The notes beneath the pieces were generated by a model. It saw only the letters and a list, made by a program, of their open reading frames with translations. It searched no databases and was not told the DNA's origin. A DNA stretch of 64,000 bases from Polyangiales bacterium (lineage in GTDB: Bacteria; Myxococcota_A; Polyangia; Polyangiales; Polyangiaceae), in the NCBI GenBank assembly GCA_038231275.1, contig JBBRLQ010000003.1:300340-364339 (forward strand), read 5' to 3'. Below are positions 25,718 through 63,956 of the stretch, in pieces. Both the position numbers and the translations under genes were made by a program. Each line of letters opens with the position of its first letter. Within the stretch, counting starts at the first letter, position 1.

Positions 25718-25724
25718 CGTCCCC

Positions 25725-43665: not shown

Positions 43666-43670
43666 GGCCG

Positions 43671-47158: not shown

Positions 47159-47801
47159 GACCGCGCTCTTTGCCGCGCGCGTGCAGGCGCTCGCGCACCA
47201 GCTGAAAGCGCTTTCGCAGGCGCGCGGCGTGCTGCGCGAGCGCGCGATCGTCGAGCGTGCCACCGTCGGGCACGAGGATCGCTGCCACGTCCCGCCACGC
47301 GAGCGCGCGGTCCACGCGGAGGACCAGCAGCGCGCGATCGTCCTCCGGTAGCTCGTCGCGCAAGCGCTGCAGCTCGCTGCGCTTCTCGGTGCGAAGGGCC
47401 GAAGCGGTCTCGGTGCGGATGCGCGTCGCCAGCTCCTCGACCTCCGTGAAGCTCGCCACGTGCACCTCGTGCCGGGCGTGCCGCGCTTCCCGCCGTCGCA
47501 CGCTCACCGACGCGTTGCGCGCGAGGAGGTAGCACCACGTCCGCACCGAGCACCGCCACTCGAAGGTCGCGAAGGTCTGCCACAGGCGCTCCGCGAACAA
47601 GGAGAACGCGTCGTCGGCGAAATCGGCGTCTTGGTGGAGCGCCACGAGGAACCCGAACACCTCGGCGCCATGCCGTTGCAACGTCGTCGCCAACGCCGCC
47701 CGATGATCTCCGGCCGCCCAGGCGGCGCGGATCGCGGAGTCGTCGTCCTCGCGGCGCCCTTCGGCCATGATCCGGCGAACGGTACCATTTTCGCGCGCCA
47801 T
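47151..47801 (-). CDS. ECF-family RNA polymerase sigma factor (paralog of 42994..43665)
   Basis: FEWRCSVRTWCYLLARN and ALLVLRVDRALAWRDVA. 3' end overlaps the 3' end of the C11-like gene (convergent). Confidence 0.7.
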   Translation of the reverse strand: MARENGTVRRIMAEGRREDDDSAIRAAWAAGDHRAALATTLQRHGAEVFGFLVALHQDADFADDAFSLFAERLWQTFATFEWRCSVRTWCYLLARNASVSVRRREARHARHEVHVASFTEVEELATRIRTETASALRTEKRSELQRLRDELPEDDRALLVLRVDRALAWRDVAAILVPDGGTLDDRALAQHAARLRKRFQLVRERLHARGKERGLI

Positions 47802-49188: not shown

Positions 49189-49848
49189 ATGGCCTACCGC
49201 GACGAGCTCGAGGCGCTTCGGAGCCGCGAAGAGGCCCTCGTCCGTGAGCTCGAAGAGACGCGACGCCTCCGCGTGGCGAGCGAGCGGCGCACCCTCCCGG
49301 TCCTCGAGCAGCTCCGTGTGGCGAGCCCCTGTCCGTCGAAGTGGGAGGACATGATCGGCGACGAGCGGGTCCGCTTCTGCGGATCGTGCGCGAAGAACGT
49401 GTACGACCTGTCGGCGATGAGCCGCGCCGAGGCCGAAGACTTCGTCGCGCGGCACTCTCCGTCGGAACGCGCGGGAAAAGAAGGCGTTTGCGTCACGTTT
49501 CGCCGCCGCGCCGATGGCAAGGTGCTGACGGCCGACTGCCCCGTCGGCGTGCGTCGTCGTCGCTTCGGGATCGGCGTCATCGCGTTCGCCGCCGCCGCCA
49601 GCGCCGCGGCGTTCGGCGTGGTCGTAGAAGATCGCGACTCGGGCGTCGCGCGGCCTAGCCTCGAGCGGCACTGCCCCGCCCACAAGACCGCCGATCACAG
49701 GACCGAGAGGAGTGATGAGTCGCCGTCGATCGGCGACGATGGCAACACCGTCACGACGGGGCTGATCATGGGCGATCCGCCGAAGCCGAGCGGACGCACG
49801 ACGGGCTGCCTCTGCCAACCCGGCGATCCGCTCTGCAGCTGCCTCTAG
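49189..49848 (+). CDS. hypothetical protein with N-terminal coiled region and Cys-rich zinc-ribbon-like segment
   Basis: 219 aa. CPSKWEDM...RFCGSCAKNVYD and C-terminal CLCQPGDPLCSC. 3' end overlaps the kdpD 3' end. Confidence 0.5.
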   Translation: MAYRDELEALRSREEALVRELEETRRLRVASERRTLPVLEQLRVASPCPSKWEDMIGDERVRFCGSCAKNVYDLSAMSRAEAEDFVARHSPSERAGKEGVCVTFRRRADGKVLTADCPVGVRRRRFGIGVIAFAAAASAAAFGVVVEDRDSGVARPSLERHCPAHKTADHRTERSDESPSIGDDGNTVTTGLIMGDPPKPSGRTTGCLCQPGDPLCSCL

Positions 49849-52565
49849 GAGAGGGACGGCGGCGCCAGCTCCGGCGGATCGCCTTCGAGCGGCAGCGTGA
49901 AGCGAAAGCGCGCGCCTCCTCCGTCTCGGTTCTCCGCCCAAATCCGACCGCCGTGCGCCTCGACGACGCCCTTGCAGATCGCGAGCCCGAGCCCCGCACC
50001 GCCGGTCTTGCCCTCGCGCGTCAGTCGGAAGAATTTCTCGAACACGCGCGTGAGCTCGTCGGCGGGCACGCCGGGACCGCGATCGGCGATGTCGACCGTG
50101 ACGACGCGTTCCTTCCCCTCGCCGCTCGCGCGCGCGACGAGCTCGATAGGGCTCCCCTGCGGCGTGTACTTCGCTGCGTTCTCGAGGAGGTTGATGAGGA
50201 CTTGCTCGAGCAGCACCGCGTCGATCGGCACGAGCGGAAGACCGGTGGGGAGATCGACCTTCACCTCGCGCTGCCCCAGGCGATCCTCCACGCGCCCCAG
50301 GGCGGCGCCGACGATCTCCTCGAGTGGCTGCCATTCCTTGGTGACGCGGAGCGCGCCGGACGCGAGTCGGGTCATGTCGAGGAGGTTTCGAACGAGCCGC
50401 GTGAGGCGGAGCGTCTCCTCGTGGATCGTCTCGAGGAGCTCGCGGCGGGCGTGCGCCGGCAACGTACCTTCGTCTTCCAAGAGGCTGCTCGCCGCGCCGG
50501 TGACGACGGCGAGTGGCGTCCGCAGATCGTGCGAGACGGAGCTGAGGAGCGAGCTGCGTAGGCGCTCGGCCTCGATCTCGAGCTGCTTCTTCTGCGCATC
50601 GCCCGCGAGCTGCACGCGCTCGATCGCCGCGGCCACCTGGCTCGCGAAGAGCTCGAGCAACCTGCGCTGCTCCGGATCGACGAAGCGCCGCGGATCCGTC
50701 GGCTGCATCCCGAGCACGCCCACCTTCCCCTGCGGTCCGCGGAGGGGGAGCGCCAGCGCGTCCGCGCTCGGCAACGTGTCGGTGGCGAGCCCCGCCGCCT
50801 GCTCGTGCTCCCACACCCACGCGACCACGCCCGCGACCTTTTCGTCGGGAACGAACGACCACGGATCTTCGAAGGTCGATTTTGGCGTGCCGTCGGGCCC
50901 CGGCAAGAGGATGGCGACGCGGCTGTCGAAGATGTCGTGGAGGTGACGCGTCGCAGCGGCGACGAGAGGCTCCATCGAACGTGCGATCGCCAGATCGCGG
51001 GTCATCGCATAGAGGATCGCCGTTCGCTGCTCGCGTTGCCGTGCGGCGTCGGCCTGCTCGCGAATCCGCTTGGCCAGCCCGCTGATCACGAGCGCGACGA
51101 CGAACATGACGCCGAACATCACGACGTGGCGGAAATCGGTGACCGCGAAGCTGAAGTACGGCGGCACGAAGAAGAAATCGACGGTGAGGACGCTCAGGAC
51201 CGTGGCCAAGAGCGACGCGGCGTATCCGAAGCGCATCGCGACGAGCACGACCGCGAGGAGGTGGACCATGACGATGTCCGGGAGCTGCGACTGCCCGAAC
51301 AGCAGCCAGCTCGCGAGGACCGCGCACGCCACCATCGCCGCGCTCGCGAAGTAGGGCACCGCCGACGTTCGCGAAGAGCTCGTCGTGTCCGCGCGCGTGC
51401 GGGCGGCCGCGCCGTCGCCGTCCGCGTCCGACTCACCGGAAATGACATAGACGTCGATCCCCTCGCTGGCGCGGACGATCTGGTCGAGGAACGACGCGCG
51501 CAAGATCTCCCGCCACCGCGGGTAGGTCGGACGGCCGACGACGATCTTGGTGACGTTGCGCGAGCGCGCATAGCGCAGCGTCTCTTCTGCGGCGTTGGCC
51601 CCGCTGAGCGTCACGACCTCCGCGCCGAGCTGCTCGGCAAAGCGAAGGTTGGTCGCGACGCGCGCGCGATCCGCGCCTGGCAGCCGGAGCGCGGCGGGCG
51701 TCTCGATGTACGCCGCGATCCACTCCGCACGAAGCTCCGTCGCCATGCGCCGCGCCGCGCGAGCGAGGCGAATCGAGGAGGGGCTCGGGCTCAGGCACAC
51801 GAGCAGCCGCTCTGCGACCGGCCACGCGCGATCGATGCCGTGCGCGCGCTGGTATACGCGCATCTGCTCGTCGACGCGCGCCGCCGTACGACGCAAAGCC
51901 AGCTCGCGAAGCGCGATGAGGTTCCCCTTCTGGAAGAAGTGATCGATCGCGCGCCGCGCCTGCTCGGGCAGATACACCTTGCCGTCCGCGAGGCGCTCGA
52001 GCAGCTCGTCCGGCGGCAGATCGATGATGCGCACGTCGTCGGCGGCCTCGAGCACCGAGTCCGGCACCGTCTCCCGCACGACGACGCCGGTGATCTGCGC
52101 GACGACGTCGTTCAGGCTCTCGAGGTGCTGGACGTTGAGCGTCGTGTAGACGTCGATGCCGGCGCCCAAGATCTCCTCGACGTCCTGCCATCGCTTGGGA
52201 TGGCGCGAGCCCTCGACGTTGGCGTGCGCGAGCTCGTCGATCAGTACGATCCCCGGCTTTCGCGCGAGTATGGCGTCGGTGTCGAGCTCCTCGAGCGGCA
52301 CGCCCTTGTGGTCGATCTTCTTCTTCGGCAGCAGATCGAGGCCGATGCAGAGCGCGGCGGTGTCGTAGCGGCCGTGCGTCTCCACGACGCCGATCACCAC
52401 GTCGCGCTTCAAATCGCGCTCCGATCGCGCCGCCTCGAGCATCGCGTACGTCTTCCCGACGCCCGGCGCGGCGCCGAAGAAGACGGTCAGCTTGCCGCGC
52501 TTGGCCCGCGACGCCTCGGCCTGCACACGGCGCAGGAGCTCGTCGGGATCCGGACGCGCGACCAT
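49845..52565 (-). CDS. kdpD: osmosensitive K+ channel sensor histidine kinase KdpD
   Basis: N-terminal GKLTVFFGAAPGVGKTYAML (KdpD P-loop domain). Usp-like region. 4 TM. SVSHDLRTPL H-box. C-terminal HATPase (GLGLAICKGVVEAHGG). Confidence 0.9.
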   Translation of the reverse strand: MVARPDPDELLRRVQAEASRAKRGKLTVFFGAAPGVGKTYAMLEAARSERDLKRDVVIGVVETHGRYDTAALCIGLDLLPKKKIDHKGVPLEELDTDAILARKPGIVLIDELAHANVEGSRHPKRWQDVEEILGAGIDVYTTLNVQHLESLNDVVAQITGVVVRETVPDSVLEAADDVRIIDLPPDELLERLADGKVYLPEQARRAIDHFFQKGNLIALRELALRRTAARVDEQMRVYQRAHGIDRAWPVAERLLVCLSPSPSSIRLARAARRMATELRAEWIAAYIETPAALRLPGADRARVATNLRFAEQLGAEVVTLSGANAAEETLRYARSRNVTKIVVGRPTYPRWREILRASFLDQIVRASEGIDVYVISGESDADGDGAAARTRADTTSSSRTSAVPYFASAAMVACAVLASWLLFGQSQLPDIVMVHLLAVVLVAMRFGYAASLLATVLSVLTVDFFFVPPYFSFAVTDFRHVVMFGVMFVVALVISGLAKRIREQADAARQREQRTAILYAMTRDLAIARSMEPLVAAATRHLHDIFDSRVAILLPGPDGTPKSTFEDPWSFVPDEKVAGVVAWVWEHEQAAGLATDTLPSADALALPLRGPQGKVGVLGMQPTDPRRFVDPEQRRLLELFASQVAAAIERVQLAGDAQKKQLEIEAERLRSSLLSSVSHDLRTPLAVVTGAASSLLEDEGTLPAHARRELLETIHEETLRLTRLVRNLLDMTRLASGALRVTKEWQPLEEIVGAALGRVEDRLGQREVKVDLPTGLPLVPIDAVLLEQVLINLLENAAKYTPQGSPIELVARASGEGKERVVTVDIADRGPGVPADELTRVFEKFFRLTREGKTGGAGLGLAICKGVVEAHGGRIWAENRDGGGARFRFTLPLEGDPPELAPPSLS

Positions 52566-52612
52566 CGACGGACTTATAGCAGGCCGACGATCGCGCCGCG
52601 CCGCGCGCTCCG

Positions 52613-53113
52613 TCAGCGGGAGGTTTGTGTCAAGGCGCGCGCGCGCCGCAACGCTTCACGCGCAGACTCGGGGCTGGCGGCGCGCACGTCGATCACGACA
52701 GTCGTGCCTGCGGTGCGCTCGTCCATCTGGAGGCGGCCGATCTCGGGTGGGCAGACCTCGCCGTCCGCGCACGGGACGCGGCGCGTGAGGTGGCACTCGA
52801 GGACATGCCAGATCGACGCCGGCGACACGCCGTCGATCTGGCGCACGTACACGGTCGCCCCTTCCAGCCTCGGCGGCTCCTTCTGCGAGACCTCGATCTT
52901 GAGCGGCTCTACGCGAACAATCGCGTCCTTGAAGCCGAGCGGTCCCCCGGCGCTTGCGTCCTCCCAGACGTCGGCGCACGCGGTCACATCGGCGCGGCCC
53001 GGGGTCGTCGCCGGCCGATCGCACGCGGCGATCGCGCACCACGCGATGGACGAGGCGACGGCCACGACGCGGCTTGCTAGGGTGATTGCATGGATCGCGG
53101 ACGTCGAGCCCAC
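52613..53113 (-). CDS. small hypothetical lipoprotein
   Basis: GTG start. Signal ...VVAVASSIAWCAIAACD. GC3 above 90%. The N-terminal extension in the track ORF (to 53605) is Gly/Arg-rich antisense of the plus gene. Confidence 0.5.
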   Translation of the reverse strand: MGSTSAIHAITLASRVVAVASSIAWCAIAACDRPATTPGRADVTACADVWEDASAGGPLGFKDAIVRVEPLKIEVSQKEPPRLEGATVYVRQIDGVSPASIWHVLECHLTRRVPCADGEVCPPEIGRLQMDERTAGTTVVIDVRAASPESAREALRRARALTQTSR

Positions 53114-53620
53114 GGCCTTCCGTCGATCGCGCGCGTCGCCCCTTGCGCGATTCTCGCCGCGTGCGCCGCGTGCGCCGCCTTCGTCCCCGACAGTCGAACA
53201 CCGACCGATCGCGCGCGCGAGCTGGACGCGAAGTGCGTCGGCGCCAGCGAGGCCGACGTCGCGCCGCTCCTCTCCGCCGCCAACGTCGACTCCGTCGAGC
53301 CCGCGTACTCCTACGTGAGCGGCGGTCCCAACGGCCGCGACGCGCACCTCCGCGGCGCGCGCATCCGCGTGAAGCCCCTCCCCGGCGCCACCCGCGAGTC
53401 GATCTCGCGGAGCCTCCAGTGCCACCAAGCGCGGGTCGTCACCGGCGCCGTCACCGCGGCCGCCGCCGATCCCTACACGCTCCCCGCCCGCTGGCTCACG
53501 ATCGAGGTCGAGTCCGAGTCCGACGCGTTCGCGGTCCTCGCCCTTACCGACGATCTCGCCGATGCGCGTCGCGTCCTCGAGCGTGCGCGGTTCTTCGCGG
53601 GGCATCGCCGGTCACCCTGA
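53090..53620 (+). CDS. small hypothetical lipoprotein (divergent; 5' end overlaps 52613..53113)
   Basis: MDRGRRAHGLPSIARVAPCAILAACAAC lipobox. GC3 about 95% across 176 codons. Confidence 0.55.
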   Translation: MDRGRRAHGLPSIARVAPCAILAACAACAAFVPDSRTPTDRARELDAKCVGASEADVAPLLSAANVDSVEPAYSYVSGGPNGRDAHLRGARIRVKPLPGATRESISRSLQCHQARVVTGAVTAAAADPYTLPARWLTIEVESESDAFAVLALTDDLADARRVLERARFFAGHRRSP

Positions 53621-53899
53621 GCCGCCGGCGTCGGCCGGGCCGTCGGGCAGCCCTGCATCGACCGCGGGGCATCCGGCGCCGTTGCAATAGGGGTTGCCGC
53701 TCTTCGTCGGATCGGAGGGGCAGCAGTAATTCTCGGCGCACGTCGAGGGCTGCTGGCAAGTGAGCCCCTCGTCGCAGTCGTTGTGGCTGAGCGCGGGATT
53801 GCACCGCTCTCCTTCGCGACCTCCATCGCACCCGCTCTCGGCGAGAACGAGCGCGAGCGCGACGGAGACCAGCGATACGGCGATGTTCGTTCGGTTCAT
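53612..53899 (-). CDS. small Cys-rich secreted protein (about 95 aa, 10 Cys)
   Basis: MNRTNIAVSLVSVALALVLAESGC then CDGGREGERCNPALSHNDCDEGLTCQQPSTCAENYCCPSDPTKSGNPYCNGAGCP. 9 nt downstream of the OM-protein gene. Confidence 0.55.
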   Translation of the reverse strand: MNRTNIAVSLVSVALALVLAESGCDGGREGERCNPALSHNDCDEGLTCQQPSTCAENYCCPSDPTKSGNPYCNGAGCPAVDAGLPDGPADAGGSG

Positions 53900-53907
53900 G
53901 GGGGGCC

Positions 53908-55368
53908 TCAAAACCGCACCAAAAGGGACGCGATCATGCGCGTGTCGGACTTCACGAGGTCCGGGCGCCAGCCTGTCGGCGACGTCGTCGTCGTGTACCC
54001 GTCGGGCGACGTGACGCCGCCGTGGCCCGCAAAATACGGATCGGCCGATTGCCGGCGGTTGAATTCCAGGCCGTAGGTGACCTGCTCGCTCGGCATGTAT
54101 TGAAACCCCGTCGAGTAGTCGAACGCGTCGAACGTGGTGCCCTGGTTGAGCGGGAACGGCGACGTCGCCGCCGGGACGTTGACCGGTTGCCCGATGCCCG
54201 ACGGCGTGGCGTTGCCGGTCGGCCCGAGCACGAGATAGCGCCCGGGGTTGTGCATCACCCCGCCGCCCATCGTCCACGCGAAGTGCCCCTCGAAGAACGA
54301 GAGGCGGTTATAGAGCATCGCGCTCAAGAACTGCTGCTGGCACGGATCGGCCGTCGTGCACGTCGTCGGATCGGACGAATGCTTGCCGCCGAAGGGCGTT
54401 ACGCCGTCCCCGTTTTCACCGCCGATGTCCGCCGTGAGCGAGAACGCGGCGCGATGCAAGAGCTTGTTGTCGGGCGCGCTGAAGTACCGAATCTGCAGAC
54501 TGTTGTCGCTGTGGAAGCGCATGCGACCGGGGGTGTCCTGCGTGTCCCACCCGACGTAGTCGTTCGACAGGAACGAGAGCCACTCCACGGGCCGATAGAG
54601 GATCTGCGCGCCGAAGCCCGGCATCTCGTTGAACCTGCCGTACGTCTGCCATCCGTTGATGAGCCACGGCTCGATCTTGAGCTTGTCGCTCGTGAAGACC
54701 TGCATGCGGATGCCGTTGAAGAACCACGGCGTGTTGTCCGAGGTGAACGACGGCAGGTACATCCAGTTCTCGAAGTTGTCGTACGAAAAGAGGCCGACGT
54801 ACGACATGAAGATGCCGGCATCGAGGTTGATGCCGTTCAGCGCGTCGAAGTGGTAGCCGCCGTAGGCCTCGCTGATGTAGCGGAGCGCCGTCTGCAAATC
54901 GAACTGGCCACGGTTGGTGCTGAAGTCGTTGCGCGGGACGAGCGTGGAGCGGACGCCGAACTGCGTCATGAGGCGCGCGCGCGCGTGCTCGTAGTGGAAG
55001 TCGCCGCCGAAGCCGACGAAGGCGAGCGTGATCTCGTTGTTGCGCGAGAGCGCGGTCGAGCCGACGACGGTGTTGTCGATGGGGCGATTCGTCGACGCCG
55101 TGTAGTTTACGTCCAGGAGGAAATCGGCCGTAAAATACGGCGTGTCGAGCACTTTCTTGTGCTGCCGACTGCTCCCGTTCAGCCAGGTGAAGTCGCCGAA
55201 CGCGAACGGCTCGGCGGGCTTCTCCTCTGTCGGCGCCGGAGTCGGAGTCGGAGTCGGAGTCGGCGTCGGATCCTCGGCGGGCTCCTGCGCGTGTGCGGGA
55301 TGGACGGTGGTGAGGGCGCACGCAAGGGCGGCCGAGCGGAGGCGCCGGCCGCGAAGGCGAACGGGCAT
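53908..55368 (-). CDS. outer-membrane beta-barrel protein (porin-like), N-terminal (PT)n linker
   Basis: Signal LRSAALACALTTVHPAHAQEP. PTPTPTPTPTPAPT. Alternating amphipathic strands rich in Y/F/W/G/N. C-terminal ...ASLLVRF, the terminal-Phe OMP signature. Confidence 0.7.
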   Translation of the reverse strand: MPVRLRGRRLRSAALACALTTVHPAHAQEPAEDPTPTPTPTPTPAPTEEKPAEPFAFGDFTWLNGSSRQHKKVLDTPYFTADFLLDVNYTASTNRPIDNTVVGSTALSRNNEITLAFVGFGGDFHYEHARARLMTQFGVRSTLVPRNDFSTNRGQFDLQTALRYISEAYGGYHFDALNGINLDAGIFMSYVGLFSYDNFENWMYLPSFTSDNTPWFFNGIRMQVFTSDKLKIEPWLINGWQTYGRFNEMPGFGAQILYRPVEWLSFLSNDYVGWDTQDTPGRMRFHSDNSLQIRYFSAPDNKLLHRAAFSLTADIGGENGDGVTPFGGKHSSDPTTCTTADPCQQQFLSAMLYNRLSFFEGHFAWTMGGGVMHNPGRYLVLGPTGNATPSGIGQPVNVPAATSPFPLNQGTTFDAFDYSTGFQYMPSEQVTYGLEFNRRQSADPYFAGHGGVTSPDGYTTTTSPTGWRPDLVKSDTRMIASLLVRF

Positions 55369-55438
55369 CCTCGAAGGCTACGGACGGGCGCGTAAAGACA
55401 GCGTCAAGACGGGCCGCGTAACCGCTAAGAAAGAGTTA

Positions 55439-55852
55439 ATGCCGCAGGCCGGACGCACTATGCTCGGCACCATCATGAGGGGAAACACAAACGCCGATCT
55501 CATGGGCTTGTCGCTGGAGGAGCTCGTCTCGGAGCTCGAAGCGTTCTACGAGCTCTCCACCGACATGGTGTCCGTCTCCTCCGCCGACGGCCGCTTCCGC
55601 CGCGTCAACCGCGCATGGGAAAAGGCCATCGGCCACCCCGCCGGCGAGATCGCCGGCAAGCGCTGGCTCGACTTCGTGCACCCCGACGACGTGCAGAAGA
55701 CGATCGACGCGGCGCGCAGCTTGTCGGCGTCGGATCTGGCGGAGTTCCAGAACCGCTACAAGCACCAGGACGGCCACTGGGTCACGCTCTCGTGGCGGTC
55801 GACGGCGTGGTCGGGCGGGCTCACCTACGCGATCACCCGTGTCGTCGGCTGA
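55439..55852 (+). CDS. stand-alone PAS-domain protein
   Basis: 137 aa. LEELVSELEAFYELSTDMVSVSSADGRFRRVNRAWEKAIGHPAGEIAGKRWLDFVHPDD is a PAS fold. Confidence 0.65.
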   Translation: MPQAGRTMLGTIMRGNTNADLMGLSLEELVSELEAFYELSTDMVSVSSADGRFRRVNRAWEKAIGHPAGEIAGKRWLDFVHPDDVQKTIDAARSLSASDLAEFQNRYKHQDGHWVTLSWRSTAWSGGLTYAITRVVG

Positions 55853-55897
55853 TCCAATTTCCCGGTAGTCGCAACCATTCCGCGTCATCATGACGCG

Positions 55898-57154
55898 ATG
55901 GACGCCGTCGGCACAGATCCGATCGCAGGGCTTGCGCTCGGGCTGACGGTCATCCTGGTCGCCGCCAAGACGGCGGGGCACGTCGCGATTCGCGTCGGCG
56001 CGCCGGCGGTGCTCGGAGAGCTCCTCGTCGGGATCGCGCTCGCCGCAGTTCCGGGCGTCCCGTTCCTGCACGCGATCGGACAGAGCCCCGAGATCGACAC
56101 GCTCTCGCGCCTCGGCGCGCTGCTGCTGGTCTTCGAGGTGGGCCTCGTGCTCACGGTGCGTGAAATTCTGGACGTCGGCGTGTCGTCGATCCTCGTCGCG
56201 GTAGTGGGCACGGCCGCTACGTTCGTCCTCGGATGGTCTTTGAGCGCGTGGCTCTTGAGCGGCCAGCCAAGCCACGTGCCCGTCTTCGTCGGCGCGGCGG
56301 TCACCGCCACGAGCATCGGCATCACGGCGCGCGTGCTCAAGGATCTGGGGCAGGCGCCAACGCGTGAGGCGCGGATCGTCCTCGGCGCCGCGGTGCTCGA
56401 CGACATCATCGGGCTTGTCGTGCTCACCGTCGTCAGTGGCTGGATCGCGAGCAAGACCGTCGGCGCGGCGGCGAGCGCGCCCTCGGTGGCCGTCGTCGTC
56501 GGCAAGAGCGTGGCGTTTCTTGGCCTGTCGATCGTGCTTGGAATGCGCCTCGCGCCGCGTCTCTTCGAGTGGGCCGCGCGTCTGCGGAGCGACGGCGCGC
56601 TCGTCGCGGTGGGCCTGGCGTTCTGCTTCGGCCTCTCGTGGGCGGCGAGCGTGATGGGCCTCGCCGCGATCATCGGCGCGTTCGCCGCGGGGCTGATCGT
56701 CGAGGAGTCGCACTCGCAGCGCTTCGTCGCGCGCGGCGAGCGCACGCTGGCGGTGCTCATCGAGCCGATCGCGTCGTTCCTCGTGCCGGTCTTCTTCGTC
56801 GTGATGGGGATGCGCACGCGCCTCGAGGTCTTTCGACAGCCCGCGGTGCTCGTCTTCGCGCTCGGGCTCACGCTCGCCGCCATCCTCGGAAAGCTCGGCG
56901 CCGGCCTGTCGGTGGGCAAGCGCGCGGACGGCCTCTCCATCGGCATCGGGATGATCCCGCGCGGCGAGGTGAGCCTCGTCTTCGCGAGCCTGGGGCTTTC
57001 GCTCGGCGCGATCGACTCCAGCATCTACTCGTCGCTCGTCGTCGTCGTGATCCTGACCACGCTCGTGACGCCCGCCATGCTCAAGTGGAGCCTCCGGCGC
57101 CGCCGCGACGCCGAGCTCTCCCGCGCGCCTACCTCACCGGGAAACGCAGCGTGA
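55898..57154 (+). CDS. cation:proton antiporter (CPA1/CPA2, Na+/H+ exchanger family) without KTN domain
   Basis: 418 aa, about 12 TM. LGELLVGIALA...SRLGALLLVFEVGL, the NhaP/KefB-type N-terminal motif. Confidence 0.75.
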   Translation: MDAVGTDPIAGLALGLTVILVAAKTAGHVAIRVGAPAVLGELLVGIALAAVPGVPFLHAIGQSPEIDTLSRLGALLLVFEVGLVLTVREILDVGVSSILVAVVGTAATFVLGWSLSAWLLSGQPSHVPVFVGAAVTATSIGITARVLKDLGQAPTREARIVLGAAVLDDIIGLVVLTVVSGWIASKTVGAAASAPSVAVVVGKSVAFLGLSIVLGMRLAPRLFEWAARLRSDGALVAVGLAFCFGLSWAASVMGLAAIIGAFAAGLIVEESHSQRFVARGERTLAVLIEPIASFLVPVFFVVMGMRTRLEVFRQPAVLVFALGLTLAAILGKLGAGLSVGKRADGLSIGIGMIPRGEVSLVFASLGLSLGAIDSSIYSSLVVVVILTTLVTPAMLKWSLRRRRDAELSRAPTSPGNAA

Positions 57155-57175
57155 CGGTGGTCGCGTGCTTCCCCT

Positions 57176-57343
57176 TTAGCGCATCCGAACGCGCCCTCGT
57201 GCGAGCGCACACGGCAAGAATACCAGCGCCATCGTCGCCAGCGTGTCGATCGCGCCGAAAGTCTGCCCACCGGACAGCGCCGTGAGGAGGTGAATGAAGC
57301 TCACGACCCACAAGACCGTGAACGGCATCACGAGATCGCGCAT
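57176..57343 (-). CDS. possible 55-aa small hydrophobic protein
   Basis: MRDLVMPFTVLWVVSFIHLLTALSGGQTFGAIDTLATMALVFLPCALARGRVRMR. GC3 about 84%. Sits in the convergent gap between the CPA gene and kdpE. Confidence 0.3.
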   Translation of the reverse strand: MRDLVMPFTVLWVVSFIHLLTALSGGQTFGAIDTLATMALVFLPCALARGRVRMR

Positions 57344-57448
57344 CCCGCCGCCGGAGCGTCGTCCGGAAGATTCAGGGGGGCTGGCGCTTCGACAATGTCC
57401 CACGCGTTGAAGCGTAGGAGCGGCCGCATCAAGAAGACGTAAAGGTGC

Positions 57449-58159
57449 TCACGCCTCGGTCTTGAACCGGTAGCCGACGCCCGGCTCGGTCGCGAGGTAC
57501 TTCGGACGCGCTGCGTCGTGCTCCAGCTTGTGGCGCAGCTGGGTCATGTAAACCCTTAGGTACTGCGTCTGCGTCGCGTACGACGGTCCCCACACTTCCT
57601 TCAAGAGCTGGCGGTGCGTGAGCACGCGCCCGGCGTTCTTCATGAGGTACGTCACGAGCTTGTACTCGATCGGTGTGAGGTGCACCTCCACCTCGGCGAG
57701 ATGAACCGACCGCTTGTCGAGGTCGAGCCTAATGTCGCCGACGACGATGACGGGCTCGGTCGTCGCCACGCCCGCACGCGCGGCGTGACGCAGCGCCACG
57801 CGAATGCGCGCCATCAGCTCGCCGGTTCCGAAGGGCTTCGTGAGGTAGTCGTCCGCGCCTTCGTCGAGCGCGCGCACTTTGTCCTCCTCCTGCCCACGCG
57901 CCGACACGACGATGATCGGCGCCTTCATCCACTCCCGCAGCTTGCGCGCGACCTCGAGCCCGTCCATGTCCGGCAGGCCGAGATCGAGCAGCACGAGCTC
58001 GGGGTTGTGTCCCTTGGCGAGCGTCAGCGCCTCCTCGCCCGACACGGCCTCGACGACGCGATACCCGTGGGTCGTGAGCGATGTCCGAAGAAACCTGCGC
58101 ATTTGCGCCTCGTCTTCGACCACCAAGAGGACTTGTTCGAGATCAGCCACGTCGTCCAC
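57449..58159 (-). CDS. kdpE: OmpR-family response regulator KdpE
   Basis: LLVVEDEAQMRRFL...LVLLDLGLPDMDG (receiver, Asp). C-terminal winged helix LTPIEYKLVTYLMKNAGRVLTHRQLL...GYRF. Confidence 0.85.
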   Translation of the reverse strand: MDDVADLEQVLLVVEDEAQMRRFLRTSLTTHGYRVVEAVSGEEALTLAKGHNPELVLLDLGLPDMDGLEVARKLREWMKAPIIVVSARGQEEDKVRALDEGADDYLTKPFGTGELMARIRVALRHAARAGVATTEPVIVVGDIRLDLDKRSVHLAEVEVHLTPIEYKLVTYLMKNAGRVLTHRQLLKEVWGPSYATQTQYLRVYMTQLRHKLEHDAARPKYLATEPGVGYRFKTEA

Positions 58160-58177
58160 TACCCGTGATCATCGTTC

Positions 58178-58195
58178 GCATAAAGAAAGCATAAA
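58178..58195. promoter_or_regulatory. direct repeat GCATAAA-N4-GCATAAA (11-bp period) in the kdpE/kup divergent intergenic region
   Basis: cGCATAAAgaaaGCATAAAattg is AT-rich within a 70% GC context. 11-bp spacing suits an OmpR/KdpE-family tandem half-site. Confidence 0.45.
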
Positions 58196-58256
58196 ATTGC
58201 ACCGACCTCGGCAAGATCGCCGAGCACGCTTCGCCGCGGTGGCAACGTTCCTTTCG

Positions 58257-60227
58257 ATGTCCACCGCGGCCCGAGCCTCGTCTCCAAGTATCGATGCAGC
58301 ACCTCACCCCGTCTCCGCCATGCGCGTGCTGGTGTGGGGCGCGCTTGGCGTCGTCTTCGGCGACATCGGCACGTCGCCGCTCTACGCGATGTCGGAGACC
58401 GTCTCGTCGCACCTGATGGCCATGCACGGCCTGAAGGAGAAGGTGACGATGAGCTTTGGCCAATACTATGGCCGTGACGAGGTGCTCGGCTGGACGTCGC
58501 TCTTCATCTGGGCGATCGCGCTCGTCGTCACCCTCAAGTACGTCGTGCTCATTATGCGCGCCGACAACGAGGGCGAAGGCGGCATGTTCTCCATCCTCGC
58601 CCTCCTCAAGTCGAAGGCGGCGAAGCTCTTCACGATGAAGGGGATGTCGGTCATCGTCGCGATGGCGGTGCTCGGCTCGGGGATGGTCCTCGGCGACGGA
58701 GTCATCACGCCGTCCTTGTCGATCATGTCGGCGTGGGAGGGGCTCGAGGTCGTGACCCACAGGTGGTCGCCGTACATTCCGTGGCTGTCGGTCGTGACGC
58801 TGATCGCGCTGTTCGGCATCCAGCGCTTTGGGACGCATCGTGTCGGCGCCGTCTTCGCGCCGGCGATGGGGATGTGGTTTTTGACCCTCGCCGTGATGGG
58901 CGCGTACTCCTTCTCGAAGCACCCGGAGATCATCGCGGCCATCAACCCGATGCACGCCGCCGCGTACATCGTGAAGTTCCCGAAGGCGACGCTCTACGTC
59001 ATCGGCTCGGTCGACCTCTGCATCACCGGCTGCGAGGCGCTCTTCGCGGACATGGGCCACTTCAGCCGGCCCGCCGTGCGCCGCGCCTGGTATTGGGTCG
59101 TCTGGCCCGCGCTCATCTTGAACTACCTCGGCCAGGGCTCGCGCATGCTCGACCCCACGCCGATCGTCGACGGCAACGTGTTCTACGCGCTCGTCCCGTC
59201 GTCGCCGGGGTTCGTGTACCCGCTCGTCATCATCAGCTGGCTCGCCACCGTCATCGCCAGCCAGGCCCTCATCTCCGGCGCCTTCTCGCTCGTGAACCAG
59301 GCGATGCAGCTCGGCCTGTGCCCGCGCGTCAGCGTCGTGCACACGAACAAGGAGATGGAGGGGCAGATTTACATCCCCGAGGTGAACTGGATTTACCTCG
59401 CGCTCTGCATCGGGCTGGTGCTGCTCTTCAAGAGCTCGCACGCGCTCGCGCCGGCGTACGGTCTCGCGGTCACCGGCACGATGGCCTTCACGACGATCCT
59501 CTTTTACATGGTGGCCACGCGCGTCTGGAAGTGGAACCCCATCGCCATCGGCGCGGCGTGCACGGGCCTCATCCTCGTCGACATCGCGTTCTTCCTCAGC
59601 AACGCGACGCAGTTTTTCGCGGGCGGCTACATCACGATCCTGATCGCGATCGCGACCGCCTTCATCTTTCTCACGTGGCGCAAGGGGCGCGCCGCGCTCG
59701 CCGAGGTGCTGCAAAACGCGGCGCTCCCGATGGATCTCTTTCTCTCGAGCATCCACGAAGAGAAACCCCATCGCGTGAAAGGCACCGCGGTCTTCATGAC
59801 GAGCAACGTCGGAGTCCCGCACTCGCTCGTTCACTATTTCAAGCACTCAAAGACGCTGCACGAGAACATCCTCTTCCTCACCGTGCAGACCAAGCACGTC
59901 CCCGAGGTGAAGGAGTCCGAGCGCATCGACGAGGTGATCGACTACGGCGACGGTCTGCACGGCGCGAAGGTCGTCTACGGCTTCATGGAGACGCCGGACA
60001 TCCCAAAAATCCTCGGCGCGATGAACGCGCACGGCGTGAAGGTGGACGCGCGCGACGTTTCGTATTTCCTCGGGCGCGAGTCGCTGGTCTTCACCGGCAA
60101 ATCCAAGATGAGCCTCCCCCGCAAGGTGTTCTTCAAGATGCTTAGCCAGAACGCCGTCGCGGCATCGGCCTTCTTCAAGCTGCCCCCGGGGCGCGTCGTC
60201 GAGCTTGGCATCCAAGTCGAGATCTGA
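58257..60227 (+). CDS. kup: Kup/HAK/KT family K+ uptake transporter
   Basis: VLVWGALGVVFGDIGTSPLYA and LKYVVLIMRADNEGEGGMFSILAL, the Kup N-terminal signature. 12 TM. Cytosolic C-terminal domain. Confidence 0.85.
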   Translation: MSTAARASSPSIDAAPHPVSAMRVLVWGALGVVFGDIGTSPLYAMSETVSSHLMAMHGLKEKVTMSFGQYYGRDEVLGWTSLFIWAIALVVTLKYVVLIMRADNEGEGGMFSILALLKSKAAKLFTMKGMSVIVAMAVLGSGMVLGDGVITPSLSIMSAWEGLEVVTHRWSPYIPWLSVVTLIALFGIQRFGTHRVGAVFAPAMGMWFLTLAVMGAYSFSKHPEIIAAINPMHAAAYIVKFPKATLYVIGSVDLCITGCEALFADMGHFSRPAVRRAWYWVVWPALILNYLGQGSRMLDPTPIVDGNVFYALVPSSPGFVYPLVIISWLATVIASQALISGAFSLVNQAMQLGLCPRVSVVHTNKEMEGQIYIPEVNWIYLALCIGLVLLFKSSHALAPAYGLAVTGTMAFTTILFYMVATRVWKWNPIAIGAACTGLILVDIAFFLSNATQFFAGGYITILIAIATAFIFLTWRKGRAALAEVLQNAALPMDLFLSSIHEEKPHRVKGTAVFMTSNVGVPHSLVHYFKHSKTLHENILFLTVQTKHVPEVKESERIDEVIDYGDGLHGAKVVYGFMETPDIPKILGAMNAHGVKVDARDVSYFLGRESLVFTGKSKMSLPRKVFFKMLSQNAVAASAFFKLPPGRVVELGIQVEI

Positions 60228-60262: not shown

Positions 60263-62857
60263 TTGCCGTATACTTCGGCCGACATGCCCGACGACATGCC
60301 CCCGGTGATCCAGACCCTCGAGCGCGCGATCGCCGACGCGAGCGGCTCGGTCGATCCCACGAGCGACGCCGCGGACGAGCACGCGCGCGCGCTGAAAGAT
60401 CTCGGCGTGCGCGCGCGGAAGCTCGCGGGCGCGTGGGGGAGGCCTCCGTGCCTGGGATTCTTCGGTCCGTCGCAGGCGGGAAAATCGTTCCTCGTCGGCG
60501 CGCTGCTCTCGCACGAGCTCGGCTCGCTCGAGGTGCAGTGTCCGTCGCGCGTGCTCGATTTTTTGAAGGAGATCAATCCGGCGAAGGGCGTCGAGTCGAC
60601 AGGCGTGGTCACGCGCTTCTCCACGCAACCGCCGACGGGGCAAAAGGCGCTGACGCACGGCGACTTTCATTGCCAGCTTCTCTCGCTCGAGCTCGTCCTC
60701 GAGTCGCTCGCGACGGGCTTCCTCGTCGAGTGCACGTCACCGGCCGTCGATCCCGAGCGGGTAGAGAAGTGCCTGCGCGACGCACGTCTCCAGGCCGGCC
60801 CCGCGGCCCCCGCCGTCTACCTCGAGGCCTGGGAAAACGTCTGGCACGATCTCAACAAGAAGTACCAAGACCGCCACCCGTACCTGAACGATCTGCGCCG
60901 GCAGCGCGCGATCGTCGACGGCGCGTGGATGAAGGAGGTGAAGACGGCGTCTGGATGGCTCCTCGTCTTCTCGCTCTTGTGGGGCGGCCCCGGACACGCC
61001 GCCGATCTCGACGCGGTGCTTCGTCTCCTCGTTCAAGGTCTCGACGCCGTCGGCCACGCGCGCACCGTCGAGGTCGGCCTCGAGCACGTGCGCGCCTCCA
61101 CTGGCGGCGTGAGCGTCATCGACGCGGGGTGTCTCAACTCGCTCGGCTCCGGCAAGACGCCGGTGCGTGTCTTCGCGCAAGACGGCGCGTCTCCCGGCCG
61201 CGAGGTCGCCGTCGAGCCGGGAGTCCTCTCCGCGCTCATCGCCGAGATCCGTTTGCCCCTGAAGCCCGTCGCCGGGTCGCTCCTCGACAAGGTCGATATC
61301 CTGGATTTCCCCGGGGGTCGCGCGCTCAAGGGCATCAACGGCTTCGGCCGCGCCGAGCTGAACACGAACAAGCTCGAGAACGCCGTCGAGGTCTACAAGC
61401 GCGGCAAGCTCACGTTCCTCTTCGAGCAGTTCTCGCTCGATCGCGAGATCACCGCGCTCTGCCTCTGCTCGCCAGGCCCGACGAAGCCCGAGGCCGTGCA
61501 GCTCCAGTCGCAGGTCGAGAGCTGGATCCAGACGCGCTACGGCGCCCCGTCGCCGACCTCGCCTCAGGAGGTCGACGATCCGAGCCTTTTCATCGCGCTC
61601 ACGAAATACGACATGAGCCTCGGCGCGCTCCGCAGCGACAACGCGAAGGATCGCTGGGACTCGCGCGTGCAGGAAGCGTGCGTCGACTTCTGGGCGAAGA
61701 GCGGCAACTCGTGGATCACCAACTGGGGCGCCCGCGGCGCGCCGTTCGCGAACATGTTCTGGATCCGCAACCCGTACGCCGATCAGATGCAGAGCCTGAA
61801 ACCCGGCACGCCGGACTACGGGACGATCAAGAACGGCTACATGGAGTCGCGCGCGGTGCAGCGGCACCTCAAGTCGTTCGCCGACAAGTGGACCGCGGTC
61901 GAAGGCGACGACGAGGCCGCGAAGCTCCCGAAGAGCGGCGTGCCCCTCCTCGCGCAGAGCCTCCGGCGCAAGCTCAGCGAGGACGTGAAGGCCGCCGAGC
62001 TTCGCGCCGAAGCGAGGGCCATCCGCGCCGAGCTCCTCACCGTGCTCAAGGCGATGACCCCGTCGAAGGACGCGGCCGAAGAACGCGCGCGCATCCTGGA
62101 GAGCGCGCAGGCGCTGGTCGGCGCGGTCGGCAAGGAGATGAGCCGCAAGTGCAGCGGCGCCGTCTTCGGCGACTTGTTCCGCGAGATCGTACCGGCCGAG
62201 CAGGAGATCGAGCACGAGGTCCGCAAGGCCTACGGAGCCGTCGCGGCGATGTCGATCAAGACGAGCGACAAGGTGAAGAAGGTCCTCGTCCACATCCTCA
62301 AGTGGTGGGTCGCCGAGGGCGTCGCGCGCGTTCGCCGCAGCCAGCTCCAGATCCCGGCGTCGCTGGTCGACGTCTTCGTGCGCGAGGTGTGCACGTCGAA
62401 GCTCCTCCTGCCGGTGCTCGGTAACGCGATTTACCCCTATTTTTCTCGTAACGTCGTCGACACGAGCATCGTCGCGACGATCATCCAAGTGAAGGTCAGC
62501 GACGCGATGCTCGCGCTCTTCTCCGCCGGCGAGCGCCAGACGCCGCAGATCCCCGCGCGCCTCTCGTACTCCGAGAGCACGGGCACCGGTACCGCAACGT
62601 CCGGCGCGCTGGAGACGGGCGCGATCGACTGGAGCAACGTCGACTTCGAGGAGGATCCGACCAAGAGCGAGCGCCTCTCGAGCGTCGAGCTGGTGTTCGC
62701 GGGGAGCCGTCACTGGCGGCGCTGGAGCGGCGGGCTCGGCGACTTCTATTTGAAGAGCCGCGGTGGCCAGGCCAAGGTCGCGCCCGACGATCCGCGCGTG
62801 CAGCGCCTCGTGGCGGTGCTGCACGAGGTGGAGAAGGTGCATGTCGCGCCCGCATGA
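60263..62857 (+). CDS. large P-loop NTPase (GTPase-like G1/G3 motifs), possibly SrfC-like
   Basis: 864 aa. LGFFGPSQAGKSFLVGALL (Walker A / G1 GxxxxGKS). KVDILDFPGGRA (DxxG, dynamin-like DxPG). Long alpha-helical C-terminal region. No signal peptide. Confidence 0.5.
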   Translation: MPYTSADMPDDMPPVIQTLERAIADASGSVDPTSDAADEHARALKDLGVRARKLAGAWGRPPCLGFFGPSQAGKSFLVGALLSHELGSLEVQCPSRVLDFLKEINPAKGVESTGVVTRFSTQPPTGQKALTHGDFHCQLLSLELVLESLATGFLVECTSPAVDPERVEKCLRDARLQAGPAAPAVYLEAWENVWHDLNKKYQDRHPYLNDLRRQRAIVDGAWMKEVKTASGWLLVFSLLWGGPGHAADLDAVLRLLVQGLDAVGHARTVEVGLEHVRASTGGVSVIDAGCLNSLGSGKTPVRVFAQDGASPGREVAVEPGVLSALIAEIRLPLKPVAGSLLDKVDILDFPGGRALKGINGFGRAELNTNKLENAVEVYKRGKLTFLFEQFSLDREITALCLCSPGPTKPEAVQLQSQVESWIQTRYGAPSPTSPQEVDDPSLFIALTKYDMSLGALRSDNAKDRWDSRVQEACVDFWAKSGNSWITNWGARGAPFANMFWIRNPYADQMQSLKPGTPDYGTIKNGYMESRAVQRHLKSFADKWTAVEGDDEAAKLPKSGVPLLAQSLRRKLSEDVKAAELRAEARAIRAELLTVLKAMTPSKDAAEERARILESAQALVGAVGKEMSRKCSGAVFGDLFREIVPAEQEIEHEVRKAYGAVAAMSIKTSDKVKKVLVHILKWWVAEGVARVRRSQLQIPASLVDVFVREVCTSKLLLPVLGNAIYPYFSRNVVDTSIVATIIQVKVSDAMLALFSAGERQTPQIPARLSYSESTGTGTATSGALETGAIDWSNVDFEEDPTKSERLSSVELVFAGSRHWRRWSGGLGDFYLKSRGGQAKVAPDDPRVQRLVAVLHEVEKVHVAPA

Positions 62858-63956
62858 GGACGCGGCGACCCCTTCCGCCGACGCGGAGGGCCTGCCGTCG
62901 ATCGACGAGCTCGCGGCGGCCGGCGACACCGAGAAGCTCCTCGAGCTCGCGAAGGGCTACCGCACCACGCGCGATCTGAAGGCGTGCCTCGCGTGCTACG
63001 AGGCGGCGGCGAAGCTGGGGAGCGCGGAGGCCGAGCACGCGGTGGGGCTCTTCCTCCTCTCGGGCGGCGTCGTGCCGAAGGACGAAAAACAGGCGGCATC
63101 CCTCTTCCGAAGCGCCGCCGACAAAGGGCACCTCCCTTCGCGCGTCTACGTCGCGAACCTCTACGAGCTGGGCCTGCACTACAAGCAAGACGCCGCGAAA
63201 GCCGACGTCTGGTACAGGAACGCCGCCCGCACCGCGCAGATCACCGAGGAGCCGGACAGCTACGGCTACGCGTACGAGATGGCCGAGCTCGGCTGCGTCC
63301 GCTACTGCCTCAAGGTCATCGCCGATCCAGAGACGACCGACGACGATCGCGTGCATTTTGCACGCAAAGCGAAGGCCTACGGATACCGCGAAAAAGGGCG
63401 GGAAACGGCGCCGCCGCCCGAGCCAGTCGCCACACTCGACGACACGATCACCAAGCCCGAGCGCCCCCCGCAAGCGAAGCCGAGCACGCCGCCCGCGGCC
63501 GACGAAAAAGAGACGGCGCCGAAAAAAGAGAAGACGAAGAGCGCGGCCTCCTCGTCGCTCACGATCGGCGCGGGGCTCGTCGCGTTCCTATGGGCAACGC
63601 TGCTCGTGGGCGCGGCGGTCGGCGCCGGGTATCTCGGCCTCGAAGGCGTGCGCCTCCTCGTCGCCAAGTACGGTCCGATCCTCGGCGCGCACGAAGAGCG
63701 CATCGTCCTCGGCGTCGCGGCGGGGCTCGCCGTGCTTGGGGCGCTCATGGTCTACACCTTCAAGAGCGTCTTCCAGGCGACCCTCGCCGCCGCGCTCTTC
63801 GCGGGGCTCGGGTGGTTCGTCTGGCGCGCCCCCAACCTCCACCTTTTTCACCTCCAGATCGCCCAGGCCATCGCCTTCGGGATCGCGGGATTTCTCGCGG
63901 CGTTGCTCCTCAAAGGCCTCGGCGGGGGCGCGAAACGACGGAACGATCGTCGGTAG
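62840..63956 (+). CDS. Sel1-like/TPR repeat protein with C-terminal multi-TM anchor
   Basis: AEAEHAVGLFLLSGGVVPKDEKQAASLFRSAADKGHLPSRVYVANLYELGL (Sel1 repeats). C-terminal hydrophobic helices. Start overlaps the upstream gene by 18 nt. Confidence 0.6.

Follow-up and report, generated by a model that had tools for sequence, protein, structure and literature searches.

In Escherichia coli the sensor kinase KdpD and the response regulator KdpE are regarded as a near single-target regulator of kdpFABC, and in a canonical kdp operon kdpD and kdpE are adjacent to each other and contiguous with these pump genes. The KdpE box of the E. coli kdp promoter is reportedly located around -72 to -50, a position ascribed to Sugiura et al. 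1992. Here we describe the kdp locus of a 64-kb stretch of DNA from a Polyangiales bacterium (contig JBBRLQ010000003.1; the whole stretch is called the window below), in which kdpD and kdpE are found together with a divergent kup gene. The sensor and the regulator are orthologous to those of E. coli and share with them the domain order as well as the catalytic, Walker and DNA-contact residues, and the predicted KdpE sites likewise consist of two T-rich 6-bp half-sites with a 5-bp spacer. Unlike in E. coli, kdpFABC is not found near the regulators, a distance of 4.9 kb separates kdpE from kdpD and each forms its own transcription unit, two of the three predicted boxes (W2 and W3) lie directly upstream of a putative -10 element, and the predicted targets are kup, a porin gene and the gene of a small membrane protein.

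Departures from the E. coli scheme have been described elsewhere. In Caulobacter, chromatin immunoprecipitation sequencing (ChIP-seq) has shown that KdpE binds many promoters besides kdp; the same study reported no KdpE dependence of kup, suggested that low K+ lowers kup expression through an unknown mechanism, and credited ChvGI with positive regulation of kup (bioRxiv 10.1101/2023.07.05.547876). It has also been found that kdpDE can sit away from kdpABC (PMC3937525) and that kdp genes can decay while others persist (PMC6584805). Caulobacter, Vibrio cholerae (VC_A0531/0532, flanked by non-kdp genes) and Francisella all provide KdpDE pairs with other targets or without an adjacent pump. The window differs from them in that the loss of the pump is documented against close relatives and the retained predicted targets are K+-related and carry canonical boxes. 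The KdpD, KdpE, Kup, CPA2 and BBP2 porin families, additional KdpE targets and kdpDE genes away from kdpABC are already known; no report on myxobacteria was found in the literature. What is unusual is a canonical KdpDE pair with KdpE-type boxes and no adjacent pump, an excision seen against relatives, and parallel independent deletions.

The arrangement has its counterpart in kdp superclusters of Polyangia, represented by the loci L162 and L163 and also by L005 (Labilithrix), L020 and L166. The window shares with L162 and L163 the order and orientation of kdpE, a small open reading frame (ORF), the antiporter gene CPA2, the porin gene, a Cys-rich lipoprotein gene, lipoA/lipoB, kdpD and the divergent kup; boxes W1 and W2 are kept in L162 and W2 in L163, and both loci have a porin-oriented box. 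The two superclusters, unlike the window, contain kdpFABC with its own box, a second kup gene (Kup2) with a strong forward box and a HATPase_c gene. We consider it rather probable that the locus is a pump-less derivative of the Polyangia (Myxococcota) kdp supercluster, in which KdpDE has been retained and acts via three boxes.

The kdp locus and its close relatives

The genes of the locus are given below in window coordinates; the G+C content of the window is about 70%.

49845-52565, minus strand: kdpD, 906 amino acids (Pfam KdpD/Usp/DUF4118/GAF/HisKA/HATPase_c)
52613 to about 53110, minus strand: lipoB, small lipoprotein-like gene directly upstream of kdpD (lipobox in the translation; frame profile of G+C at third codon positions, GC3; start approximate)
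53090-53620, plus strand: lipoA, small lipoprotein (translation and GC3 frame profile)
53612-53899, minus strand: Cys-rich small lipoprotein (translation)
53908-55368, minus strand: BBP2 (OmpL-like) outer-membrane porin (Pfam PF07642, 1.2e-34; signal peptide seen in the sequence)
55460-55852, plus strand: single-domain PAS protein, 130 amino acids, first of the PAS-CPA2 pair (Pfam and NCBIfam PAS)
55898-57154, plus strand: putative CPA2 cation/proton antiporter, membrane domain only, NapA-like (PF00999, 7.6e-56)
57176-57403, minus strand: small ORF, 75 amino acids, two transmembrane (TM) segments, corresponding to the small proteins with a PYR(S/T) motif in relatives
57449-58159, minus strand: kdpE (Response_reg and Trans_reg_C; start GTG 58159 or GTG 58150)
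58257-60227, plus strand: kup, K+ transporter of the Kup/HAK/KT family (PF02705, 2.5e-152; PF22776, 4e-38)

As stated in the first-pass annotation of this DNA, kdpD and kdpE lie on the same strand with seven genes between them; both are intact orthologues, and the gap (52566-57448) measures 4883 bp. That annotation missed that three of the seven genes (lipoA, PAS and CPA2) are on the opposite, plus strand. Its observations that the window holds no Kdp pump genes and that kdpE is divergent from kup over 97 bp also stood: tblastn with KdpA, KdpB and KdpC of E. coli and of two myxobacterial relatives (E<=10) gave zero matches, either to the genes or to relics of them, in the 64 kb. The 5' end of lipoA abuts or overlaps lipoB on the opposite strand (about 53090-53110), and at the 3' end lipoA shares 9 nt (53612-53620) with the Cys-lipoprotein gene. 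Paralogy of lipoA and lipoB was rejected (BLASTP E=0.09, not significant); both are coding by GC3 frame profile. The exact product of the PAS gene is a called gene in a public protein collection.

KdpD is 45% identical to its E. coli counterpart over 899 amino acids and scores 947 bits with the NCBIfam KdpD model, the cut-off of which (1123) is tuned to enteric sequences. Its domain order (PF02702 KdpD, Usp, four-TM DUF4118, GAF, HisKA, HATPase_c) is complete, and Walker A G37-K38-T39, D110/E111, R191, H679 and the N, G1 and G2 boxes are conserved. KdpE is 54% identical to E. coli KdpE; its top NCBIfam match is KdpE with 278 bits (cut-off 325), followed by the next family with 200. It combines an OmpR-family receiver with a winged helix, and D59, S86, Y105, K108, R202, R209 and T224 correspond to E. 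coli D52, S79, Y98, K101, R193, R200 and T215, of which R193, R200 and T215 are needed for DNA binding (PMC3264566). Neither kdpD nor kdpE has a frameshift or stop, and all genes of the locus are under purifying selection, with ratios of nonsynonymous to synonymous substitution rates (dN/dS) of 0.08-0.35; kdpE has 0.08 against L162 and kdpD 0.21-0.23 against relatives. A -10-like element precedes kdpD:

52573-52578, minus strand: TATAAG, 7 nt upstream of the kdpD ATG (from the sequence)

Counterparts, TAGAAT or TACAAT, stand 6-9 nt before the start in L162, L169, L170 and L167, and kdpD probably has its own promoter, giving a leaderless or short-leader transcript.

The first-pass annotation regarded kdpD and kdpE as split by a 4.9-kb insert. 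This part of it did not survive the comparison with the two superclusters, L162 (JGI contig Ga0654460_0001107, found through its protein P0002 in a search with the CPA2 protein) and L163 (Ga0683571_0002752), both of which have the same split layout plus kdpFABC. Identity between L162 and the window is 92% for KdpE and the porin, 87% for the KdpD N-terminus, 86% for kup and 85% for CPA2, and falls to 76% for lipoA, 51% for the 75-aa small ORF and 46% for lipoB, the L162 counterpart of which lies upstream of kdpF. The loci compare as follows.

L162, read as the window minus strand: kup <-> kdpE-small ORF-HATPase / CPA2<-Kup2 / porin-Cys-lipoprotein-(lipoA)-lipoB-box-kdpF-kdpA-kdpB-kdpC-kdpD
L163: L162-like layout with a Kup2-PAS-CPA2 operon and with extra genes between kdpC and kdpD
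Window 52566-52612, minus strand: deletion scar, 47 bp from the lipoB stop to the kdpD start, where the relatives have the kdpF promoter box and kdpFABC (about 4.9 kb)

The porin, the Cys-lipoprotein, the two lipoproteins, the small ORF and CPA2 hold the same positions in L162 and L163, as does PAS in L163, where it lies between Kup2 and CPA2 and is 77% identical to the PAS protein of the window. Because both relatives share the intervening genes while kdpFABC is present between lipoB and kdpD, the split kdpE...kdpD layout is ancestral in the group and the derived event is the deletion of kdpFABC. In blastn, L162 positions 1-114 match 52452-52565 of the window and 5011-7644 match 52627-55269, so that L162 115-5010 is replaced by 61 bp. 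In the junction alignment about 16 nt of the lipoB-kdpD spacer resemble the kdpC 3' tail, which is weak evidence in GC-rich DNA. A mobile-element or horizontal origin of the supposed insert was rejected: there are no flanking repeats of the insertion sequence type and no marked composition break, and the genes are syntenic in relatives. A scan of JGI metagenomes with KdpE found no contig with the same pump-less arrangement; a single CPA2 gene occurred near kdpE, in a different context (L144).

The window further lacks Kup2 upstream of its PAS gene, a gene that precedes (PAS-)CPA2 in L162 and L163, and its HATPase gene has been lost apart from a 39-nt remnant at 57129-57167. In relatives HATPase_c-only proteins of about 190-257 amino acids come after the small ORF:

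L162 11226-11975: HATPase_c-only gene
L163 528-1301 and 15831-16589: HATPase_c-only genes, one of them directly before kdpD
L166 10041-10625: HATPase_c-only gene

The small membrane protein may have the HATPase_c protein as its partner.

Pump genes have been lost more than once in the clade. In L169, a Logan contig from two samples, KdpD is 83% identical to that of the window; L168, a contig of GCA_936402815.1, comes from a more distant relative (KdpD 64% identical).

L169 1-213: in-frame fusion of kdpA codons about 394-407 to kdpC codons about 139-190, followed by intact kdpD; kdpB deleted
L168 9860-9970: kdpC 3'-end relic of 37 codons, followed by kdpD-kdpE-porin-Cys-lipoprotein-lipoA

The kdpA'::'kdpC fusion, with which the L169 contig starts, was borne out by DNA comparison with L162, L163 and L165, and downstream of kdpD L169 has the genes w49189 and w47831, as in the window. 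No kdpA or kdpB was found within 10 kb on either side in L168. Both are pump deletions independent of the one in the window, and the loci form a natural before-and-after series: the locus with the pump, the kdpA'::'kdpC fusion without kdpB, and the pump fully excised. In L167, whose KdpD is 82% identical, the end of kdpC is followed by an inserted M50-like protease gene, a box and kdpD; the inserted metalloprotease gene (about 115-770) encodes an HELGH motif, and a KdpE box and TACAAT stand ahead of kdpD. The closest KdpD of the species collection belongs to L002, where kdpD is followed by the convergent w49189 homologue and not by kdpE. Among 80 KdpD loci sampled as one genome per species, 65 had kdpB and kdpC on the fetched stretch; in all 15 loci without kdpB the upstream flank was incomplete.

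KdpE-type boxes and promoter geometry

Three predicted KdpE sites were found in the window:

58178-58195, minus strand: box W1, TTTATGCTTTCTTTATGC, TTTATG-CTTTC-TTTATG, in the kdpE/kup spacer; 23.4 bits, best site in the window
57426-57443, minus strand: box W2, TTTACGTCTTCTTGATGC, TTTACG-TCTTC-TTGATG, 5 nt past the kdpE stop and before the small ORF; 22.8 bits
55390-55407, minus strand: box W3, TTGACGCTGTCTTTACGC, TTGACG-CTGTC-TTTACG, 21 nt before the porin ATG; 17.0 bits, third-best in the window

W1 had been noticed in the first-pass annotation as GCATAAA-N4-GCATAAA and likened to tandem half-sites of OmpR/KdpE. The repeat is exact at these coordinates, and the likeness proved sound: TTTATG/TTTATG at an 11-bp period compares with the half-sites of E. 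coli KdpE, TTTATA/TTTACA with a 5-bp spacer (PMC3264566). The E. coli site, TTTATA-CTTTT-TTTACA, reads toward kdpF. In each of the three boxes a 5-bp spacer separates two T-rich 6-bp direct repeats, both of which begin with the invariant TT. With at most one mismatch allowed, the pattern TTTAYR-N5-TTTAYR would be expected 0.04 times in the window; it occurs three times, always on the minus strand and within the kdp locus. With a weight matrix made from kdp-locus sites of relatives only, W1, W2 and W3 rank 1, 2 and 3 in the window; the null maximum was 14.1 +/- 2.0 bits (largest 19.8).

The boxes are conserved. W1 is conserved in L162 (21.3 bits), as are the 18 nt that lead from it to the kdpE GTG, and between the window and L162 the box and the stretch to the GTG are about 95% identical, compared with about 72% for the middle of the spacer and about 81% for coding DNA. 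L162 and L163 both conserve W2 with its predicted -10 element and the GTG, and both have porin-oriented TTAACG-N5-TTAACG boxes. The same motif stands ahead of kdpF in L162, L165, L020 and others, and the scores of W1 and W2 match those of the best boxes in pump-bearing relatives. We take the GCATAAA repeat not to be a chance feature, and infer that W1, W2 and W3 are binding sites of phosphorylated KdpE (KdpE~P).

W2 and W3 are parts of two similar predicted promoters:

55375-55407, minus strand: W3 promoter unit (W3, 9 nt, TAGCCT at 55375-55380, 6 nt, porin ATG)
57411-57443, minus strand: W2 promoter unit (W2, 9 nt, TACGCT at 57411-57416, 7 nt, GTG at 57403)

The same succession of box, 9 nt, TAnnnT, 6-7 nt and start codon is found before the small two-TM ORFs of L005, L019, L020 (twice), L162 and L163 and before Kup in L166, and box, 9 nt and TAnnnT followed by a leader are found before kdpF (L162 and L020) and Kup2 (L162 and L163). 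With such spacing the box would extend from about -39 to -22. PhoB promoters typically carry the pho box in such a position, where it replaces the -35 element. As in class II PhoB promoters, about 9-10 nt separate the -10 element from the end of an 18-bp box made of two direct repeats, and there is no -35 consensus; the regulator and the signal are different, and the -10 elements of the window, read from the sequence alone, stand only 6-7 nt before the start codon. The geometry suggests that the W2 and W3 promoters have a PhoB-like, -35-replacing architecture which differs from the E. coli paradigm. Because only 6-7 nt separate the -10 element from the start codon, the small ORF and porin mRNAs are probably leaderless or near-leaderless.

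W1 does not follow this scheme. As a class II site for kdpE it is doubtful, the hexamer 9 nt downstream being TCACGG and the alternatives GATGAT and TAGTGG being out of register. The box is 61 nt from the kup ATG; the corresponding gap of the reverse box is 60 in L162, 53 in L005 and, counted by hand, about 57 in L020. A -10-like element is found on the kup side:

58244-58249, plus strand: AACGTT, 7 nt upstream of the kup ATG, conserved in L162

Predicted targets of KdpE

The first-pass annotation proposed that KdpDE may control kup and the CPA exchanger rather than a Kdp pump. The kup part of this proposal is plausible, W1 being conserved and the Kup genes of relatives having boxes, the CPA part is weak, and the part on the pump is tentative, the search for pump genes having covered the 64 kb. 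Kup has both the K_trans and the K_trans_C domain and scores 553 bits with NCBIfam Kup, below the equivalog cut-off of 883. In L162 kup is likewise divergent from kdpE, and its MSTAA start is conserved in L162 and L005. Forward boxes precede kup in L005 (36 nt to the ATG), Kup2 in L162 and L163, and Kup in L166; in L005 kup is the last gene of the porin-kdpFABC string. KdpDE control of kup in the window is on these grounds plausible.

In relatives the CPA2 gene is part of a Kup2-(PAS)-CPA2 operon preceded by a strong forward box. The window has lost both Kup2 and this box, of which an 8.9-bit remnant is left before PAS, so the case for KdpE control of CPA2 in this genome is weak. The putative antiporter scores 140 bits with TIGR00932, below the cut-off of 238, and its only solved relatives, 4BWZ/5BZ2/5BZ3, are labelled Na+/H+ antiporter (E 1.6e-49); we take these structures to be NapA of Thermus thermophilus. 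Residues 16-402 align with 4BWZ/5BZ2 over the full length, and there is no RCK/KTN domain; unlike that of NapA, the CPA2 gene of the clade lies in a Kup2-PAS-CPA2 operon inside a kdp locus.

The predicted regulon is wider than kup and the CPA gene, because W2 and W3 stand in fixed promoter geometry before the small ORF and the porin gene. In the window, L005, L019, L020 (twice), L162 and L163 the start codon of the small ORF comes 21-22 nt after the KdpE box. Members of this small two-TM family have 75-114 amino acids, usually start with xxPYR(S/T), have zero Pfam matches, and are encoded before kdpD, the porin gene or the HATPase_c gene:

L005 19542-19766: small two-TM gene
L020 9645-9989 and 14901-15209: small two-TM genes
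L019 13523-13789: small two-TM gene
L162 12020-12247: small two-TM gene
L163 283-510 and 15571-15906: small two-TM genes

The window ORF has HCRS in place of PYRS. The porin, identified by its PF07642 barrel, signal peptide and kdp-gene neighbours, has homologues adjoining kdpD in 18 of the 80 KdpD loci, and homologues of the Cys-lipoprotein come after it in L005, L162, L163 and L168; the Cys-rich lipoprotein is a regular porin partner in the kdp loci of the clade. At 55229-55270 the porin gene contains a 12-nt tandem repeat encoding a (Thr-Pro)n linker just past the signal peptide.

Leave-one-locus-out matrices recovered new boxes before kdpF, the porin gene, the small ORF-kdpD unit, Kup and KimA-like genes. 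The last encode APC transporters whose only solved relative is KimA (6S3K, E 4e-54):

L007 4849-6942: KimA-like gene; spacer to kdpE with two forward boxes and one reverse
L072 10255-12354: KimA-like gene; spacer to kdpE with two forward boxes and one reverse
L019 20906-22687: KimA-like gene; one forward box 53 nt before the start

The distribution of these sites suggests a broad KdpE regulon of K+ uptake in Polyangia.

Proposed mechanism, alternatives and neighbouring genes

If the locus is a pump-less supercluster, its ancestor would have had the order kdpE-small ORF(-HATPase), CPA2<-(PAS)<-Kup2 and porin-Cys-lipoprotein-lipoA/lipoB-kdpFABC-kdpD, with a second kup divergent from kdpE. A deletion of about 4.9 kb would have taken the kdpF promoter box, kdpF, kdpA, kdpB and nearly all of kdpC and joined lipoB to kdpD, and separate losses would have removed Kup2 and the HATPase gene. 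KdpD would sense K+ limitation and phosphorylate KdpE, and KdpE~P would bind the 18-bp boxes, composed of two TTnAYG-like half-sites with an 11-bp period. At W2 and W3 it would activate the small ORF and the porin-Cys-lipoprotein unit; W1 would most likely serve as an upstream activating site for kup (at about -70, taking AACGTT as the -10 element), and may also autoregulate kdpE. The response to low K+ would then be induction not of an adjacent Kdp ATPase but of Kup, the porin/lipoprotein pair and the small membrane protein.

Several observations weigh against this proposal. The training boxes of relatives used for the matrix were initially chosen by eye; the leave-one-locus-out scans recovered many boxes that had not been so chosen. 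W3 taken alone (17.0 bits) falls inside the range of null maxima. W1 is off geometry for kdpE, with TCACGG instead of TAnnnT 9 nt downstream, and is reverse-oriented relative to kup, which makes its target ambiguous. The -10 elements and the leaderless starts are read from the sequence alone, and a scan with the sigma-70 consensus found no promoter in 52400-58400, a null which fits activator-dependent promoters while giving them no positive support. With its PYR motif lost and its HATPase partner gone, the small ORF may be a part of the regulon that is decaying. Finally, the N-terminal (atypical) Ser-kinase domain of KdpD, which in E. coli phosphorylates Ser162 of KdpB, its only known substrate (PMC11018627), is fully intact, and no other part of the protein is as well conserved, which agrees with a recent deletion as well as with a second kdpFABC at another site.

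That the window is only the regulatory half of a system whose pump, a relocated or divergent second kdpFABC, lies at another site and is controlled in trans by KdpDE is possible, if doubtful in our estimate. Besides the intact KdpB-directed Ser-kinase residues (PMC11018627), it draws on the occurrence in Polyangia of several kdpD/kup copies in one region (two kdpD in L005, two kdpE in L072). Against it, every KdpD locus of the 80-locus sample with a full 10-kb upstream flank adjoins kdpB and kdpC, and two other relatives (L168, L169) have lost pump genes at the same position. An orthologous KdpB would be expected to show at least 90% identity, given the 92% of KdpE and the porin. With L162 KdpB as query, no NCBI-only protein among the best 120 matches rose above the 80-86% plateau, the two NCBI-only candidates tested belong to other assemblies, and four of six tested window proteins (including KdpD, porin, PAS and CPA2) are in that protein collection. 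The comparison covered the best 120 KdpB relatives (at least 79% identity), and KdpB, with a plateau of 80-86% across many taxa, is too conserved for a sharp test; the search argues against a relocated orthologue (at least 87% identity) and not against a more divergent second copy. It is improbable that the whole locus is decaying after the loss of the pump, with kdpD, kdpE and the boxes as recent relics without current function. The three separate losses (kdpFABC, Kup2 and the HATPase gene), the degeneration of the forward box before PAS-CPA2 to 8.9 bits and the divergence of the small ORF (dN 0.40, PYR motif lost) would agree with such decay; opposed to it are the absence of frameshifts and stops from kdpD and kdpE, the conservation of all their catalytic and DNA-contact residues, the low dN/dS of kdpE (0.08), the scores of W1 and W2, equal to those of the best boxes of pump-bearing relatives, and the retention of kdpDE and the porin in L168 after an independent deletion.

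That the repeat with its 11-bp period is an AT-rich element arisen by chance, or serves another OmpR-family regulator, we regard as very improbable. AT-rich stretches are common in promoters of GC-rich genomes, and many OmpR-family regulators use 10-11-bp direct repeats; however, just three such sites occur in the 64 kb, each flanking kdpE, the small ORF or the porin gene, their half-sites are near-identical to those of E. coli KdpE (PMC3264566), the motif recurs ahead of kdpF in L162, L165, L020 and others with W1 itself conserved in L162, and the sole tblastn match of E. coli KdpE in the window at E<=1e-3 is kdpE.

A further-reaching form of the proposed pump-less locus, put forward tentatively and with rather little confidence, is that KdpDE has outlived the Kdp ATPase and become a general K+-limitation regulator of secondary transport in a genome without a Kdp pump. 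Its targets would be Kup, the porin/lipoprotein pair, the small membrane protein and perhaps the NapA-like CPA2; the recurrent independent deletions in the window, L169 and L168 would reflect selection against the ATP-driven pump, and KdpD would need a Ser-kinase substrate or role other than KdpB. If the regulation predicted for the locus holds, the KdpDE regulon of myxobacteria would be a wider K+ regulon (Kup, KimA-like, CPA2 and porin) that alone suffices to keep KdpDE under selection without the pump, and the role of the KdpD serine kinase in the absence of KdpB would become testable.

Known RNAs and riboswitches had zero Rfam matches across the whole window. The remaining features noted around the locus are listed below.

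49189-49848: gene convergent with kdpD, with a Cys-rich tail, TTGC(L/M)CQPGDPLCSCL, in the window and L002; zero Pfam matches; homologue downstream of kdpD and convergent with it in L002, L167, L169 and L170, with an extra hybrid kinase gene between the two in L167
39504-42305: SrfB-family gene (PF07520)
60263-62857: PF10139 gene (putative bacterial virulence factor), 18 kb from the SrfB-family gene, the two flanking the kdp locus
62763-63956: Sel1-repeat gene, after the PF10139 gene
47151-47801: weak Sigma70_r2 match, similar to extracytoplasmic function (ECF) sigma factors
43296-45752: Ser/Thr protein kinase fused to an FGE-sulfatase domain, typical of myxobacteria
21077-25732: enzyme of 1551 amino acids with reductase (NAD_binding_4), AMP-binding, PP-binding and acyltransferase domains

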